A stretch of DNA of 64,000 nt from Escherichia coli (lineage in GTDB: Bacteria; Pseudomonadota; Gammaproteobacteria; Enterobacterales; Enterobacteriaceae), in NCBI RefSeq assembly GCF_013122565.1, contig NZ_CP053258.1; one strand, given 5' to 3'. The notes below the pieces were generated by a model, which searched no databases, was not told the origin of the DNA, and saw nothing but the letters and a program-made list of their open reading frames with translations. A program made the translations under genes and the position numbers. Shown piece by piece: positions 58,098 through 62,531 of the stretch. Within the stretch, counting starts at the first letter, position 1, and every line of letters starts with the position of its first letter.

Positions 58098-58441
58098 AAA
58101 CGACGATAAGCGTTAAGGGAGGAAGGAAGTGTGATGATGTTAAAAAAAACACAGATATGATACGAAACAGGACCCTGAATAGGGGCAGTGATACGTATCA
58201 ATATGAGTGGCGATAAAATCAATGTGATAAATTGGGATTATTACGCATCAGGATGGGAAATAGGGTAAATGAGTCAGGAAATTCGATACCTCTACAGTGA
58301 ATATTTTGCTGATGATACTTCCCTTTGCCAAATGAAATTAATCTCTTTCTCTATTACTGCGTTTTTCCAGAAGCAAGAGATTGGGTATCAAGAGGCTGGC
58401 TGCTATGATATGGCGTCTTGTTTTTTAAGCGAGGAAAGATT

Positions 58442-59194
58442 TTGAGTGCGGGACGCCTGAATAAAAAATCTCTGGGTATCGTGATGTTGTTATCGGTTGG
58501 ACTGCTTTTGGCGGGCTGTTCGGGTAGCAAATCATCCGATACAGGAACGTATTCCGGCTCCGTTTACACCGTGAAACGGGGGGATACTCTATATCGTATT
58601 TCGCGCACCACGGGAACCAGCGTAAAAGAGCTGGCGCGACTGAACGGCATTTCCCCCCCTTACACCATTGAAGTTGGTCAGAAACTAAAACTGGGTGGGG
58701 CGAAAAGTAGCAGTACACGTAAATCAACCGCCAAATCAACGACCAAAACCGCATCTGTTACACCGTCATCAGCGGTACCGAAATCTTCCTGGCCGCCAGT
58801 AGGGCAACGTTGTTGGTTATGGCCAACGACAGGGAAAGTTATCATGCCGTATTCGACAGCTGATGGCGGCAATAAAGGGATTGATATCTCAGCACCACGG
58901 GGTACACCTATTTACGCCGCGGGTGCAGGAAAGGTGGTGTATGTAGGCAATCAGCTGCGTGGCTACGGTAATCTCATCATGATTAAACACAGTGAAGATT
59001 ATATTACGGCTTACGCACATAATGACACGATGCTGGTTAATAATGGGCAAAGCGTGAAGGCTGGGCAAAAAATCGCCACTATGGGGAGCACTGATGCGGC
59101 ATCTGTTCGCCTGCATTTCCAGATTCGTTACCGTGCAACGGCAATTGATCCGCTACGTTACTTGCCGCCTCAGGGCAGCAAGCCAAAATGCTGA
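58442..59194 (+). CDS. ygeR: LysM-domain / M23-peptidase-family lipoprotein
   Basis: lipobox LLLAGC, LysM (YTVKRGDTLYRISR) and M23 LytM-like C-terminus; start uncertain (TTG at 58442 with RBS gagga, TTG at 58418, or ATG at 58484). Confidence 0.8.
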   Translation: MSAGRLNKKSLGIVMLLSVGLLLAGCSGSKSSDTGTYSGSVYTVKRGDTLYRISRTTGTSVKELARLNGISPPYTIEVGQKLKLGGAKSSSTRKSTAKSTTKTASVTPSSAVPKSSWPPVGQRCWLWPTTGKVIMPYSTADGGNKGIDISAPRGTPIYAAGAGKVVYVGNQLRGYGNLIMIKHSEDYITAYAHNDTMLVNNGQSVKAGQKIATMGSTDAASVRLHFQIRYRATAIDPLRYLPPQGSKPKC

Positions 59195-59272
59195 TGGCGA
59201 ATTAATCAGCAGTCAGCAGCGCGGCACTTGCTAAGGAGAGCGTAAGGTTTATAATGCCTTACGCATCTCGAA

Positions 59273-59346
59273 GCGGGCGTAGTTCAATGGTAGAACGAGA
59301 GCTTCCCAAGCTCTATACGAGGGTTCGATTCCCTTCGCCCGCTCCA
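59273..59346 (+). tRNA. glyU: tRNA-Gly (anticodon CCC)
   Basis: 74 nt cloverleaf GCGGGCGUAGUUCAAUGGUAGAACGAGAGCUUCCCAAGCUCUAUACGAGGGUUCGAUUCCCUUCGCCCGCUCCA; encoded CCA. Confidence 0.95.
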
Positions 59347-59579
59347 ATTTATCTTCACCTCATCAACCTGCCATTTTTGTTGTATCTGATTTTCTATATT
59401 ATCTTAATTCAATCGGTTCAGACTTTTCGCAATCGCCGTAATACTTCCCCATTTTTTTGTAAATAAAAAGCGATTACGCAATGCAATCCTTTTGTAACAA
59501 TCCAGGTAAAATACCTTATTTTCAAGTTGTTAAATAAGTGGTTATCTACGCTTTTAACAAACGATTGATGGAATATTTT

Positions 59580-61190
59580 ATGAAAGGGAAATCTGCATTA
59601 ACTCTTCTGCTCGCTGGTATATTTTCATGCGGCACCTGCCAGGCGACAGGGGCAGAAGTGACGAGTGAATCTGTATTTAACATTCTTAATTCCACGGGGG
59701 CAGCAACAGATAAAAGTTATTTATCGTTAAATCCAGATAAGTATCCTAATTATCGTCTTCTGATTCACTCAGCCAAATTAAAAAATGAAATAAAGAGCCA
59801 CTATTCCAAAGACGAAATTCAAGGATTGTTAACATTAACAGAAAATACACGAAAGTTAACGTTGACGGAGAAACCCTGGGGAACATTTATTCTTGCTTCT
59901 ACTTTCGAAGATGACAAAACAGCGGCAGAAACCCACTATGATGCTGTCTGGCTGAGGGATAGTTTATGGGGCTATATGGCCTTAGTATCAGATCAGGGAA
60001 ATAGTGTAGCCGCAAAAAAGGTTCTGCTCACCCTGTGGGATTATATGTCTACGCCCGACCAGATTAAGCGGATGCAGGACGTCATTAGCAACCCAAAACG
60101 ACTGGATGGAATTCCTGGGCAAATGAATGCTGTGCATATCCGATTTGACAGCAACTCCCCCGTGATGGCGGATGTGCAGGAAGAAGGCAAGCCGCAGCTG
60201 TGGAACCATAAACAAAATGATGCGTTAGGTCTTTATCTTGATCTCCTTATACAAGCAATCGACACTGGTACTATTAACGCTGAAGATTGGCAAAAAGGTG
60301 ACCGATTAAAATCGGTTGCGCTGCTGATTGCTTATCTGGATAAAGCCAATTTCTATGTTATGGAAGATTCCGGAGCGTGGGAAGAAGATGCCAGATTAAA
60401 CACATCTTCCGTTGCACTGGTGACCTCTGGACTGGAACGTTTGTCGAACTTACTCTCGAAGAAAGACTCTGTTTTTGTCTCTGATTTACTACGTGAAGCT
60501 AAAGCCAATGAACTGGATGAACCTCTTTCAACAACGAGGTTGAACCACCTCATAGATAAAGGTTATGAAAGAATAACGTTACAGCTTGATTTAGGGGGAG
60601 AATCCCCAGGTTATCTGGAAAAAGATAAACATTACAGAGAAGCCGATGCGGCTTTACTTAATGTTATTTATCCTGCAAATCTTTCAAAGATAAACACCAG
60701 AAGAAAAGAGCAAGTTCTAAAAATAGTTAAAAAACTAGCAGGTCCGTATGGTATAAAAAGATACGAGAAGGATAATTATCAGTCGGCAAATTTTTGGTTC
60801 AATGATATTAAAACCGATACCGATCAAAATTCGCATGCAAAAAGAGAAAAGAGCTTCATTCCATCAACAGAAGCAGAATGGTTTTTTGACTCATGGTATG
60901 CAAAATCAGCAGCAATTGTTTATAAAGAATCAAGAAAAGAAGAGTATTTGAATGACTCAGTGCAATTTATGAATAGATCATTGGCCCAAATAACAGGCGA
61001 GAATATGATTGGTGCAAATGGCAGGAGTGTACCTGAAATGGCACTTCCCGAAAGCTATAACTATATCCACAAGTCGGGAACTTTGCATGAAGCGCCAAGC
61101 CCTATCATTCCGCTAAATTGGTCGAAAGCATCAATGACTCTCATGTTGAAAGAGATGTCCAACCTTATCAATGATGAGGGAAATAAATAG
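59580..61190 (+). CDS. secreted glycoside hydrolase family 15-like protein (glucoamylase / glucodextranase fold)
   Basis: signal peptide MKGKSALTLLLAGIFSCGTCQA; GH15-type motifs WLRDS and EDSGAWEED; start uncertain (GTG 59538, ATG 59568 or ATG 59580). Confidence 0.7.
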   Translation: MKGKSALTLLLAGIFSCGTCQATGAEVTSESVFNILNSTGAATDKSYLSLNPDKYPNYRLLIHSAKLKNEIKSHYSKDEIQGLLTLTENTRKLTLTEKPWGTFILASTFEDDKTAAETHYDAVWLRDSLWGYMALVSDQGNSVAAKKVLLTLWDYMSTPDQIKRMQDVISNPKRLDGIPGQMNAVHIRFDSNSPVMADVQEEGKPQLWNHKQNDALGLYLDLLIQAIDTGTINAEDWQKGDRLKSVALLIAYLDKANFYVMEDSGAWEEDARLNTSSVALVTSGLERLSNLLSKKDSVFVSDLLREAKANELDEPLSTTRLNHLIDKGYERITLQLDLGGESPGYLEKDKHYREADAALLNVIYPANLSKINTRRKEQVLKIVKKLAGPYGIKRYEKDNYQSANFWFNDIKTDTDQNSHAKREKSFIPSTEAEWFFDSWYAKSAAIVYKESRKEEYLNDSVQFMNRSLAQITGENMIGANGRSVPEMALPESYNYIHKSGTLHEAPSPIIPLNWSKASMTLMLKEMSNLINDEGNK

Positions 61191-61256
61191 TTTTCATAAT
61201 GAGGCGGTCCTGGATTAAAAGGACCGCTCAAAGAGAAATCGAAAGGGGAGGTAAAA

Positions 61257-61436
61257 GTGATCAATAAATTACTGTTAGCTTACCTGATAGGTCTGGTTGT
61301 GACATCGACTTTAATATTTATCTTCTCGGAAGAAAAAGTAACATATCGGTTGTTTGCTGCAATAATTACAGGTTTAACCTGGCCGCTTAGTCTCATTCCT
61401 TCCATTATAAGTCTCATGATTCGTAAATCCGACTAA
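61257..61436 (+). CDS. hypothetical small membrane protein (59 aa, two predicted TM helices)
   Basis: GTG start with strong RBS aaggggagg 5 nt upstream; two hydrophobic stretches (LLLAYLIGLVVTSTLIFIF, LFAAIITGLTWPLSLIPSIISLMI); absent from the ORF track because of the non-ATG start. Confidence 0.4.
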   Translation: MINKLLLAYLIGLVVTSTLIFIFSEEKVTYRLFAAIITGLTWPLSLIPSIISLMIRKSD

Positions 61437-61781
61437 CAAGAAAATTATATGATCGATTAAGAAAAATAGAATCGAACAGGAGAATAAAATATATGCGGGG
61501 AGTAACAAAACACTCGCAGTGCGTTAATGAAGAACTAACAAATATGATTTGTATTGAAAATAGTTACCAAACAAGTGTTATAAGAAATACGAGGTGTGTT
61601 TAAGTAAAGCATATCAACAGTTACAAATCTGTATATGGACAGGATGACGTACAAGTGTAAGTGGCTGATAGCTATTCGCTCATAACAAAATCATTATTTT
61701 ATAAATAGGAATCATCACTTTTTAATCATGTTTTTATAGCAATTTTATGGAGAATGAGAATATGGAATAAGGAGATGAAAC

Positions 61782-62531
61782 ATGATTGAAGAAGGGCTGT
61801 TACTTCCAATGAATGTTTTGCTTCAAGGACAGAAGTTAACCCTACTGGACCCTGAAATGTGGTTCTTACGGGGAAATGAAAACAAGGATGTAACCCTTGT
61901 TATTACGATCGGTAATAACCATCAAAAATTAATGGTAGTGGAAGATATATTACTGCTCATTGACCGAAGCCAAATTGAGGTAACGGCAGGGAAAGTAATT
62001 TATCATCCACTTCGCATTGATATCCTGAGTAAATTATTAGCTTTTATAGATGAATCAACGGGGAGTGTGGAAAGGGAGCACCATGAGTTGTTTGCTGATG
62101 CCTTGCCCTTTGCATCAGAAGTTGTGCTATTCAGTAAAGTTGCTAGTGAAGCCTGGTTTTTAGCCACTTATCTGAGCAGCGATAATATTAATGAAGTTCT
62201 GTTTCAGCATCTAAGAAAAACAGAATGCTATAAACTGGTTCGCTATTTATTATCGCAATCGCTTATACAGACTTCACTCTATGATCTTGGAGAGCTTTAC
62301 GGCGTATCGTATTCACATTTTCGCCGTTTATGTAGTTATGCATTGGGTGGTAAAGTTAAAACGGAATTATGTGGCTGGAGAGTTGCCAGAGCCGTGTTGG
62401 AAATCATTGAAGGAAACAGTGATATGACAACTATTGCGCATAAATATGGCTACTCTTCCTCATCACACTTTTCAGCCGAAGTAAAAAGCCGGTTAGGAAA
62501 AACACCGAGAGAACTATGTAAAAAGCTATGA
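61782..62531 (+). CDS. eivF: AraC-family transcriptional activator, InvF-like (ETT2 type III secretion regulator)
   Basis: 249 aa; C-terminal AraC HTH (GVSYSHFRRLCSYALGGKVKTEL...YGYSSSSHFS) closely parallels Salmonella InvF; RBS aaggag. Confidence 0.8.
   Translation: MIEEGLLLPMNVLLQGQKLTLLDPEMWFLRGNENKDVTLVITIGNNHQKLMVVEDILLLIDRSQIEVTAGKVIYHPLRIDILSKLLAFIDESTGSVEREHHELFADALPFASEVVLFSKVASEAWFLATYLSSDNINEVLFQHLRKTECYKLVRYLLSQSLIQTSLYDLGELYGVSYSHFRRLCSYALGGKVKTELCGWRVARAVLEIIEGNSDMTTIAHKYGYSSSSHFSAEVKSRLGKTPRELCKKL

Follow-up and report, generated by a model that had tools for sequence, protein, structure and literature searches.

An intact GH15-like gene, ygeQ (pkgA), at the glyU end of the ETT2 island of Escherichia coli may encode a Sec-exported alpha-glucoside enzyme

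Why does a gene resembling those for glucoamylases stand at the very edge of a type III secretion island, and does its product depend on the secretion needle? The question arises from a stretch of E. coli DNA of 64,000 nucleotides (nt), referred to here as the window, in which an initial annotation had placed an intact glycoside hydrolase family 15 (GH15)-like gene as the first gene of the island, between glyU and an InvF-like regulator. This placement proved correct. The tRNA-Gly gene glyU (anticodon CCC; positions 59273 to 59346, plus strand) was found by ARAGORN, and RefSeq has a tRNA-Gly in the orthologous position. At this tRNA, the insertion site of the island, the GC content drops from roughly 0.52 to roughly 0.38, so that the following gene, ygeQ (pkgA), lies inside the low-GC island. 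On its other side, eivF (61782 to 62531, plus strand), which encodes an InvF-like AraC-family regulator, is the first recognized regulatory gene of ETT2 and is annotated as such in RefSeq; its open reading frame (ORF) matched the NCBIfam InvF model at an E value of 1.2e-54, yet stayed under the cut-off of that model (185 versus 259 bits). According to the RefSeq annotation, sctC lies downstream of eivF. Scans for promoters and terminators gave promoter-like sites around ygeQ at chance level and no terminator-like site on the plus strand between ygeQ and eivF.

The ygeQ coding sequence extends from position 59580 to 61190 on the plus strand (1611 nt, 536 amino acids). Alternative upstream starts are a GTG at 59538, which gives an ORF of 550 amino acids (59538 to 61190, plus strand), and an ATG at 59568. 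The RefSeq start of the orthologous coding sequence is the ATG equivalent to 59580, which again yields 1611 nt and 536 amino acids, and "glycoside hydrolase family 15 protein" is the RefSeq name of the ortholog of the same length, WP_123057311.1. The gene is under purifying selection, with dN/dS ratios of 0.083 against the Escherichia albertii ortholog and 0.034 against E. coli EC42405. These low ratios, together with matches of the YgeQ family profile to 855 cluster representatives and a confident AlphaFold model (mean pLDDT of 91.8), rule out a chance ORF.

Neither the gene nor its placement in this family is new, and finding them here adds little in itself. YgeQ/PkgA is encoded at this same locus in other E. 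coli strains, adjoining glyU at the end of ETT2, with 98 to 99% nucleotide identity between the gene described here and those of complete E. coli genomes. It has been listed as ECs3736 plus ECs3737 in O157 Sakai, b2863/b2862 in K-12, and EC042_3075 in enteroaggregative strain 042. The original Sakai annotation split it into two ORFs, whereas the form found here is one intact protein of 536 amino acids. For K-12, the initial annotation had suggested a pseudogene remnant at this locus, and this proved correct: the K-12-type YgeQ comprises residues 1 to 264 and ends in VMEDS and a stop, just short of the catalytic WEE motif, and a second ORF fragment covers residues 288 to 379 and is followed by an IS2 element. 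The literature description of the gene is about twenty years old. pkgA appears in published ETT2 tables, with homology to glucoamylase and phosphorylase kinase (PhK) reported, and there has been speculation that PkgA serves as an ETT2 effector directed at the glycogen metabolism of the host (PMC2808357 and PMC3977695, both citing Pallen 2003). The role of the gene had been called unexplained in the initial annotation; no activity assay of YgeQ or its family was found in the literature searched, but given the published homology and effector speculation, the gene is not unexplored.

We then asked what kind of protein YgeQ is. A catalytic domain like those of GH15 (clan GH-L), with an (alpha/alpha)6-barrel, covers approximately residues 101 to 530 (59880 to 61169, plus strand). 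Foldseek searches with the AlphaFold model supported the GH15 fold, the top matches being the D1 domains of PhK alpha and beta (8JFK). Pfam PF00723 matched weakly (E value of 3e-5, 23.6 bits, residues 108 to 430 of the 550-amino-acid form), PGAP names the ortholog GH15, and the NCBIfam oligosaccharide amylase model TIGR01577 scored 14.7 bits, far short of its cut-off of 820.7. The original assignment of the gene as GH15-like stands. The similarity of YgeQ to true glucoamylases nevertheless appears weak at the level of sequence. When the protein and its family profile were searched against PDB sequences with E values up to 10, only PhK was found and no true glucoamylase; the family profile matched PhK alpha at an E value of 6.5e-7. 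Compared with the inverting GH15 enzymes Aspergillus niger glucoamylase (3EQA), a bacterial glucoamylase (1LF6), glucodextranase (1ULV), and the isomaltose glucohydrolase KfIG (5Z3A), YgeQ is only 14 to 15% identical and, unlike them, has neither a starch-binding domain nor a large N-terminal beta-sandwich domain. It differs further by an N-terminal extension of about 75 residues after the signal peptide and by additional stretches behind the RY..D motif and within the loop bearing the predicted base. The nearest solved relatives by sequence are the GH15-like D1 domains of PhK alpha and beta (8JFK), whose WE acid motif can be aligned with that of YgeQ. In eukaryotes, the PhK subunits serve as regulators in the cytosol; they exceed 1000 amino acids and have four further domains, whereas YgeQ is bacterial, consists of a single domain, and has an export signal. 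Judged by these comparisons, the YgeQ family is the nearest bacterial relative of the glucoamylase-like domains of PhK, and the substrate of YgeQ might reveal what those domains did in the past.

Does this domain have the residues required for catalysis? The WLRDS and WEE motifs pointed out at the outset are present, the former at residues 124 to 128 (59949 to 59963) and the latter within EDSGAWEED at residues 262 to 270. In W267-E268-E269 (60378 to 60386, plus strand), E268 (codon 60381 to 60383) is the predicted general acid; it aligns with E179, in the alpha5-alpha6 loop of the A. niger enzyme, and with E185 of PhK alpha in hhalign and HMMER comparisons and is conserved in 157 of 157 relatives. 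In P490-E491-S492 (61047 to 61055, plus strand), E491, the counterpart of E400 in the alpha11-alpha12 loop of the A. niger enzyme, is predicted to serve as general base or nucleophile. Of the 157 relatives, 155 share this residue, and in the AlphaFold model it lies in the loop between the last two predicted helices. The alignment of E491 with E400 appeared only in a low-stringency hhalign run (mact 0.05, E value of 3e-4, 40% probability) against a profile of 118 fungal glucoamylases, whose members are at least 64% identical to the query of the search that gathered them and thus contribute little diversity. A profile of the 157 relatives aligned residues 101 to 407 with the A. niger glucoamylase and left the base unaligned. 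Single-sequence alignments to the same enzyme (hhalign and hmmsearch) were discarded, as they reached no further than the RY..D region and put the base region in the wrong place.

The hhalign comparison paired YgeQ residues Y120, W124, R126, D127, W208, and W267 with A. niger Y48, W52, R54, D55, W120, and W178, and E268, E269, R394, D398, W406, and E491 with E179, E180, R305, D309, W317, and E400. The residues of subsite -1 (A. niger Y48, W52, R54, D55, W120, W178, R305, and W317) are identical in YgeQ. Conservation of the paired positions reaches 155 to 157 of the 157 relatives, most residues of subsite -1 being kept in at least 147, and W406 in only 85. Both catalytic glutamates can thus be placed by alignment and are near-invariant. 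In the mechanism that we propose, E268 would donate the proton and E491 would serve as base, in a pocket that binds glucose through the same residues as in glucoamylase, and YgeQ would cut, and possibly transfer, the terminal alpha-linked glucose of its substrate.

The same pocket bears on whether YgeQ is an enzyme at all. A noncatalytic protein with a PhK D1-like fold and pocket might only bind glucan, in a sugar-binding or regulatory role. PhK, the nearest solved relative, gives this idea some force: PhK alpha and beta did not hydrolyze maltose, isomaltose, or glycogen, although PhK alpha retains both glutamates (PMC10978961). That negative result is, however, limited to three substrates, and in the YgeQ family, about a dozen pocket residues and both glutamates are near-invariant across very distant bacteria. 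Since this is the usual pattern of an enzyme, we favor a catalyst and regard a pure binder as very unlikely.

If YgeQ is an enzyme, the residue after E491 leaves some doubt about its mechanism. Glutamine follows the base in inverting GH15 members (E-Q), whereas serine follows it in the retaining dextran dextrinase (G-E-S) (PMC12446779). The glutamine typical of inverting hydrolases is absent from YgeQ, which has Ser492 instead, and among the 157 relatives the site is occupied by S (94), A (37), L (17), or C (6), without a single Q. With serine rather than glutamine after the catalytic base, "hydrolase" is a likely description of YgeQ but not a certain one. E491 could instead be the nucleophile of a retaining transglucosylase that builds or remodels an alpha-glucan or a glucosylated envelope structure outside the cytoplasm; the authors of PMC12446779 state that the mechanism is not readable from sequence. 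They report that, in the retaining enzyme, the equivalent glutamate lies nearer to the anomeric carbon by about 1.2 to 1.6 A. Against this, the residue preceding the glutamate is proline, as in the inverting KfIG and glucodextranase, and not the glycine of dextran dextrinase (PMC12446779). The retaining homolog from Gluconobacter (9JU0) is also a protein of 1284 amino acids with four domains, to which YgeQ is only 12% identical and whose extra domains it lacks. On balance, we consider a retaining transglucosylase unlikely.

The pocket likewise speaks to another suggestion of the initial annotation, that the enzyme clears peptidoglycan or capsule to open a path for needle assembly. The position of ygeQ next to genes of the secretion apparatus is what recommends this idea. 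The bonds of peptidoglycan are beta-1,4 linkages between GlcNAc and MurNAc, and the -1 pocket residues of YgeQ are those that bind glucose in glucoamylase. Every characterized GH15 enzyme acts on terminal alpha-glucosidic linkages (PMC12446779), and an IagB-like lytic transglycosylase is already among the products of the ETT2 island. For these reasons, the clearing role was rejected as exceedingly improbable.

Where would an alpha-glucoside enzyme of this kind act? The initial annotation had described a cleavable signal peptide, and a rule-based scan finds a Sec-type signal peptide at residues 1 to 22 (59580 to 59645, plus strand), with lysines at positions 2 and 4 and hydrophobic residues at 6 to 16. 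The Sec-like character of the N terminus is thereby upheld, with two candidate cleavage sites of equal plausibility: a lipobox at Cys17 (LTLLLAGIFS-C17, matching a PROSITE-type pattern as LAGIFS|C17; Cys codon 59628 to 59630) and an AXA-like signal peptidase I site (CQA22|T23), both proposed by simple rules. In the AlphaFold model, residues 5 to 16 are helical, and residues 1 to 4 and 17 to 23 have pLDDT values below 50. Close relatives also have Sec-type N termini: in the E. albertii ortholog, Cys17 is present although the strict lipobox pattern is not matched, and the Yersinia relatives have a signal peptidase I site (AQA|S) in place of the lipobox. Among 174 full-length family members, 102 have a hydrophobic N terminus, and 25 of these 102 match the lipobox pattern as well. 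Export through Sec is therefore probable, and YgeQ would end up in the periplasm or as a membrane-tethered lipoprotein.

This export signal is hard to reconcile with the published effector idea, in which PkgA would be injected into host cells by ETT2 as a mimic of a PhK regulatory subunit or as a glucoamylase and would disturb glycogen metabolism. To our knowledge, known type III substrates carry no Sec or lipoprotein signal. A classical Sec or lipoprotein N terminus was found by the rule-based check not only in YgeQ but also in the secretion-linked relatives with complete N termini, and no chaperone gene adjoins ygeQ in the window. The effector idea draws on the PhK subunits being the nearest PDB relatives by sequence and on the neighborhoods of related genes, and it is therefore best weighed together with the distribution of the family.

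Within E. coli, about half of the complete genomes (approximately 2968 of 5426) carry at least 80% of ygeQ, and only 1324 of them also have the segment from ghoT to eivF. A sample suggests that most copies of full length are undamaged. The gene is preserved even in E. coli whose ETT2 has lost its secretin, export gate, and ATPase; strain EH53 has a deletion of eivF to eivI and pseudogenes in place of three export genes, yet keeps an intact ygeQ. As intact copies occur where ETT2 is crippled, and ygeQ is commoner than the ghoT-eivF segment, YgeQ would arrive where it acts without help from the secretion needle.

Beyond E. coli, relatives with 48 to 76% identity adjoin SPI-1/ETT2-type genes or regulator homologs in most of the enterobacterial-type contexts examined; across these contexts, the neighbors are ETT2/SPI-1-type genes, regulator homologs, or a GhoT-like partner (see below). 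The relative at locus L013 lies beside prgH, that at L055 directly after prgK-orgA-orgB, and that at L051 beside GhoT, a HilA-like gene, and prgHIJK. The L052 relative is near EivF-like and YgeG-like genes, and those at L053 and L013 are near pentapeptide or SopD-like genes. One relative apparently lies inside a secretion system operon. This persistent place beside secretion operons, seen in many lineages, counts in favor of an effector and suggests some functional tie beyond the explanation that we prefer. At 35 more distant loci, neither secretion genes, regulator homologs, nor a GhoT-like partner was found, and the distant homologs, with loci free of secretion genes in Mycoplasmataceae, Saccharibacteria, Bifidobacterium, and Clostridiales, have no conserved operon partner. 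In Commensalibacter, the neighbor is a GH32 gene; in Bifidobacterium, no related gene lies close by. Species counts cannot be taken from the profile search of genome contigs, which returned no Enterobacterales even though E. coli and Yersinia carry the gene.

Such distant homologs, and the lipoboxes of many family members, weigh against injection into host cells. With the export signal of YgeQ and the survival of ygeQ where needle genes have been lost, we find the effector idea disfavored and its truth distinctly unlikely. We prefer, with modest confidence, the reading that YgeQ is a catalytically competent and probably Sec-exported alpha-glucoside enzyme that is carried by the island and acts independently of the needle. 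The gene would be cargo of an ETT2-type island lineage, traveling with a small GhoT/OrtT-like membrane protein.

This companion is a hydrophobic ORF of 59 amino acids (61257 to 61436, plus strand; ECs3735/ydcX-like) that lies between ygeQ and eivF, separated from the end of ygeQ by 66 nt, and that had been overlooked earlier. Its ortholog is named "GhoT/OrtT family toxin" in RefSeq, and Pfam PF10753 matches the orthologs; no NCBIfam model matched the ORF. Relatives with 48 to 76% identity usually have such a gene beside them: a GhoT-like gene adjoins the GH15-like gene in E. albertii and at loci L014, L051, L052, and L053, and Yersinia retains a remnant of it. The two form a conserved two-gene module. 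The ORF shares its family with the small membrane toxins GhoT and OrtT. Unlike in those systems, no GhoS-type antitoxin gene is annotated beside it, and its partner is the GH15-like gene, a pairing that we did not find described in the literature searched.

The repeated SPI-1-type neighbors and the GhoT/OrtT pairing suggest a real tie to the secretion-island lifestyle. A bolder proposal, unlikely in our estimate, is that the enzyme and its neighbor are a conserved Sec-exported accessory module of ETT2/SPI-1-type islands, acting on an alpha-glucoside substrate outside the cytoplasm, for example, a host or dietary glycogen-type glucan or an envelope structure bearing alpha-glucose. In such a module, the enzyme might be a retaining transglucosylase rather than a hydrolase, and the small membrane protein might aid its release or regulation. 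If so, a new accessory function of secretion islands would replace the "effector" label of twenty years' standing.

A search of the plasmid collection gave no plasmid-borne copy, the three E. coli matches being chromosome-sized records, and the similarity of L013 to known plasmids was confined to its sopAB partition genes. The secretion-linked relatives were seen on chromosomes as well as on apparent plasmids.

An unbroken open reading frame (ORF) of 550 amino acids runs from a GTG codon at 59538 to 61190 on the plus strand, and it contains both motifs quoted in the initial annotation, WLRDS (residues 124 to 128) and EDSGAWEED (residues 262 to 270). It is ygeQ (pkgA), a gene already known and already annotated. 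Orthologous loci in RefSeq start at the ATG equivalent to 59580, which gives the 536-amino-acid form used here for residue numbers (+14 in the 550-amino-acid form). Upstream lie a tRNA-Gly(CCC) gene (59273 to 59346) and, farther away, the lipoprotein gene actS/ygeR and then xdhA (minus strand). A hydrophobic 59-amino-acid ORF (61257 to 61436, plus strand), named a GhoT/OrtT-family toxin in RefSeq, follows downstream, and after it an InvF-like AraC regulator, eivF (61782 to 62531); in relatives, sctC and the remaining ETT2 genes come next. The GC content, about 0.52 before the tRNA-Gly gene, falls to about 0.38 precisely there; ygeQ therefore opens the island, which bears out the earlier placement. 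The earlier observation holds, and its interpretation was essentially right.

ygeQ is a real gene under selection, with a dN/dS of 0.083 against the Escherichia albertii ortholog (76% amino acid identity) and of 0.034 against E. coli EC42405. Between E. coli and E. albertii, dS was 1.9 for ygeQ and 1.3 for eivF (59580 to 62531) versus 0.83 for the flanking core gene actS (58439 to 59194), a gap that may reflect separate acquisitions, an earlier split between alleles, or more rapid change within the island. Searched against 1.84 billion proteins, a profile built from 51 relatives retrieved 855 cluster representatives at an E value of ≤1e-3 and 225 at ≤1e-30, which marks the YgeQ family as distinct and fairly small.

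Taken by itself, the sequence makes a modest case for membership in glycoside hydrolase family 15 (GH15): Pfam PF00723 matched YgeQ with an E value of 3e-5 (23.6 bits), an NCBIfam search gave nothing usable, and the only matches of the family profile among PDB sequences were the alpha (E = 6.5e-7) and beta (E = 4.9e-4) subunits of phosphorylase kinase (PhK). Structure comparison returned GH15 enzymes and PhK subunits, namely, the isomaltose glucohydrolase KfIG (5Z3A [PMC12446779]; 30.4), PhK alpha (8JFK_M; 28.4), PhK beta (8JFK_B; 28.3), dextran dextrinase (9JU0; 26.8), a bacterial glucoamylase (1LF6; 25.5), Aspergillus niger glucoamylase (3EQA; 24.3), glucodextranase (1ULV; 23.6), and Saccharomycopsis fibuligera glucoamylase (1AYX; 22.9), and Foldseek agreed. 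The precedent of PhK is the one thing that suggests a noncatalytic binding protein, a role that we consider improbable.

The pocket residues were mapped onto the catalytic domain of A. niger glucoamylase (a query identical to 3EQA_A residues 1 to 454 in a PDB search). A YgeQ family profile of 157 sequences aligned with this domain over residues 101 to 407 (E = 9e-5), and a low-stringency comparison with a profile built from 118 fungal glucoamylases gave a full-length alignment (405 columns; E = 3e-4). E268 falls on the general acid E179, flanked by W267 (W178) and E269 (E180), and E491 falls on the general base E400; Y120, W124, R126, D127, W208, R394, D398, W406, and W514 correspond to Y48, W52, R54, D55, W120, R305, D309, W317, and W417, respectively. 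An independent HMMER alignment matched W267-E268 to W184-E185 of PhK alpha, where E185 is the catalytic-equivalent Glu (PMC10978961). E268, E269, R394, Y395, and D398 are invariant among the 157 relatives, and E491 is kept in 155. The assignment of E491 as the putative general base comes from a weak alignment, and the model is consistent with it: the loop that joins the last two helices contains E491, and the GH15 base sits in that alpha11-to-alpha12 loop (PMC12446779).

The residue after E491 is Ser (Ser, Ala, Leu, or Cys across the 157 relatives, never Gln). Inverting GH15 hydrolases have E-Q at this position, whereas the E-S of YgeQ is shared with the retaining dextran dextrinase, although the authors of that comparison warn that GH15 mechanism is not readable from sequence (PMC12446779). 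The E-S motif keeps alive the reading of YgeQ as a retaining transglucosylase, which we regard as doubtful. We lean, at slightly better than even odds, toward an exported GH15-type enzyme: YgeQ would be exported by Sec, adopt its GH15-type barrel fold at a membrane or in the periplasm, and take off, or possibly transfer, the terminal alpha-linked glucose of some substrate, with E268 as the proton donor and E491 as the base. Of this reading, the fold, the pocket, the selection, and the signal-like character of the N-terminus are observed, and export, activity, substrate, and stereochemistry are inferred.

The N-terminus of YgeQ, MKGKSALTLLLAGIFSCGTCQATG, has two lysines followed by a hydrophobic stretch. 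In a rule-based scan, it proved signal-like, in line with the initial annotation: a PROSITE-type lipobox pattern ends at Cys17, and an alternative AXA-like site is CQA22|T23. The model has a helix at residues 5 to 16 and then a disordered linker. Sec signals are clear in close relatives (e.g., LLSGIAQA|SP in Yersinia), and 102 of the 174 full-length family proteins have a hydrophobic N-terminus, 25 of them with a lipobox pattern too; the remaining 72 include members from Gram-positive bacteria and termite gut metagenome-assembled genomes (MAGs). YgeQ is probably exported, as a soluble periplasmic protein or a lipoprotein.

ygeQ is partly or wholly present in 3,985 of 5,426 complete E. coli genomes, and 2,968 carry at least 80% of it; roughly four-fifths of full-length copies in an evenly spaced sample (a rough estimate; n = 29 rows) are annotated as an unbroken "glycoside hydrolase family 15 protein." The suggestion in the initial annotation that the K-12 locus has only a pseudogene remnant was right: K-12 strains keep only the first 1,137 nucleotides (nt), and the annotated protein comprises residues 1 to 264, ending VMEDS* directly before GAWEE, followed by a fragment of residues 288 to 379 and then IS2. 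The ghoT-eivF segment is also kept in only 1,324 of the genomes. A common deletion starts 13 nt past the ygeQ stop codon (about 61203) and joins eivJ/spaN, removing ghoT through eivI and leaving ygeQ intact; by subtraction, about 1,600 of the 5,426 genomes carry it. One example is EH53 (L054), which lacks eivF to eivI and carries epaO, epaP, and epaS as pseudogenes. Across 59200 to 61800, the best match among the complete genomes was 98.8 to 98.9% identical, so the island allele of the source strain lacks a close representative among them; just two reach 99% over the ygeQ coding sequence.

Relatives with 36 to 55% identity occur in Commensalibacter, Bifidobacterium, Bdellovibrionales, and Oligoflexia and in termite gut MAGs of Elusimicrobiota, Planctomycetota, Clostridiales Family XIII, Synergistaceae, Mycoplasmataceae, and Saccharibacteria. 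At these loci, tblastn with 30 ETT2 proteins detected no secretion system genes, and no GhoT-like small hydrophobic ORF followed the GH15-like gene apart from an unrelated-looking candidate at L031. The contexts examined for relatives with 48 to 76% identity differ strongly. E. albertii (L006 and L007) has the E. coli gene order. The gene at L013 (P0004; 66%) abuts prgH-prgI-prgJ-prgK-orgA-orgB, a cluster accompanied by ygeK-, iagB-, hilA-, and invH-like genes, and is flanked on its opposite side by the plasmid partition genes sopAB, and L051 (P0023; 50%) carries GH15-, GhoT-, InvH-, HilA-, IagB-, and YgeK-like genes, orgBA, and prgKJIH, adjoining a TraI relaxase gene. At L055 (P0034; 49%), an E. 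coli assembly has a divergent second copy, on the same strand as prgK-orgA-orgB and directly after them. InvH-like and GhoT-like genes lie upstream at L014 (P0007; 58%), EivF-like (46%) and YgeG-like genes and a downstream GhoT-like gene occur at L052 (P0013; 54%), a downstream GhoT-like gene and a pentapeptide-repeat gene at L053 (P0010; 54%), and HilA-like and InvH-like genes at L011 (P0009; 54%); in Yersinia enterocolitica (L003), a GhoT-like remnant is downstream and a type III tip complex gene about 10 kb off. These relatives are mutually 47 to 75% identical, and the Commensalibacter protein, 47 to 56% identical to them, stands at about the same distance. The genomic linkage has therefore outlasted several rearrangements and a great deal of sequence divergence; drawn from a small sample that was picked by similarity rather than through a systematic survey, it is an observation and not a statistic.

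This neighborhood beside SPI-1/ETT2-type genes fits the published idea that YgeQ is an injected ETT2 effector. The ETT2 table of PMC3977695 has entries for ECs3736/pkgA ("phosphorylase kinase and glucoamylase"; b2863), ECs3737 (b2862), and ECs3735 (ydcX). That paper speculates that the product is an ETT2 effector acting on host glycogen metabolism, and PMC2808357 makes the same proposal for EC042_3075, citing Pallen 2003 (Protein Sci 12:1804). However, an effector role clashes with the signal peptide, with the relatives in bacteria without secretion systems, and with the intact ygeQ of strains whose ETT2 is crippled, and this sole published hypothesis looks unlikely on present evidence. We found no functional study of ygeQ/pkgA in the literature, and the gene goes unmentioned in a 2024 review of ETT2. 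Peptidoglycan clearing, floated in the initial annotation, has gene position as its sole point in favor and is highly improbable.

In at least six lineages, the neighbor of the GH15-like gene is a GhoT/OrtT-family hydrophobic ORF of 55 to 59 amino acids that has a conserved GLTWPLSL-like motif (61257 to 61436 in the window; L006, 9687 to 9866; L051, 5502 to 5669; L052, 8280 to 8453; L053, 9593 to 9766; L014, 3144 to 3317), with a remnant in Yersinia. No GhoS-type antitoxin is annotated beside these ORFs. The pairing and the repeated siting beside SPI-1-type genes appear to merit experiment.

Some E. coli carry a second GH15-like gene, only 49% identical to ygeQ, behind the prgK-orgA-orgB genes of a different SPI-1-type cluster and beside an integrase fragment (L055, 254 to 3958; GCA_033038075.1, the 4-kb contig ABOJBJ010000126.1). 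L013 (1 to 16659) and L051 (1 to 15455) are metagenome-assembled contigs with ETT2-like prg/org/hilA/iagB/ygeK clusters; their F-type sopAB and TraI neighbors, respectively, suggest plasmid-borne ETT2 relatives, and PLSDB contained no matching plasmid. In Y. enterocolitica (L003, 5748 to 9440; also L004 and L005), genes for proteins of 848 and 326 to 332 amino acids, without Pfam matches and kept in three independent contigs, lie on the opposite strand directly upstream of the GH15-like gene, and an invasin-like gene is nearby. In Commensalibacter oyaizuii (L008, 9711 to 11147), the homolog and a GH32 (invertase/levanase-type) gene are convergent; the GH32 gene is the sole carbohydrate-related neighbor seen among the distant homologs.
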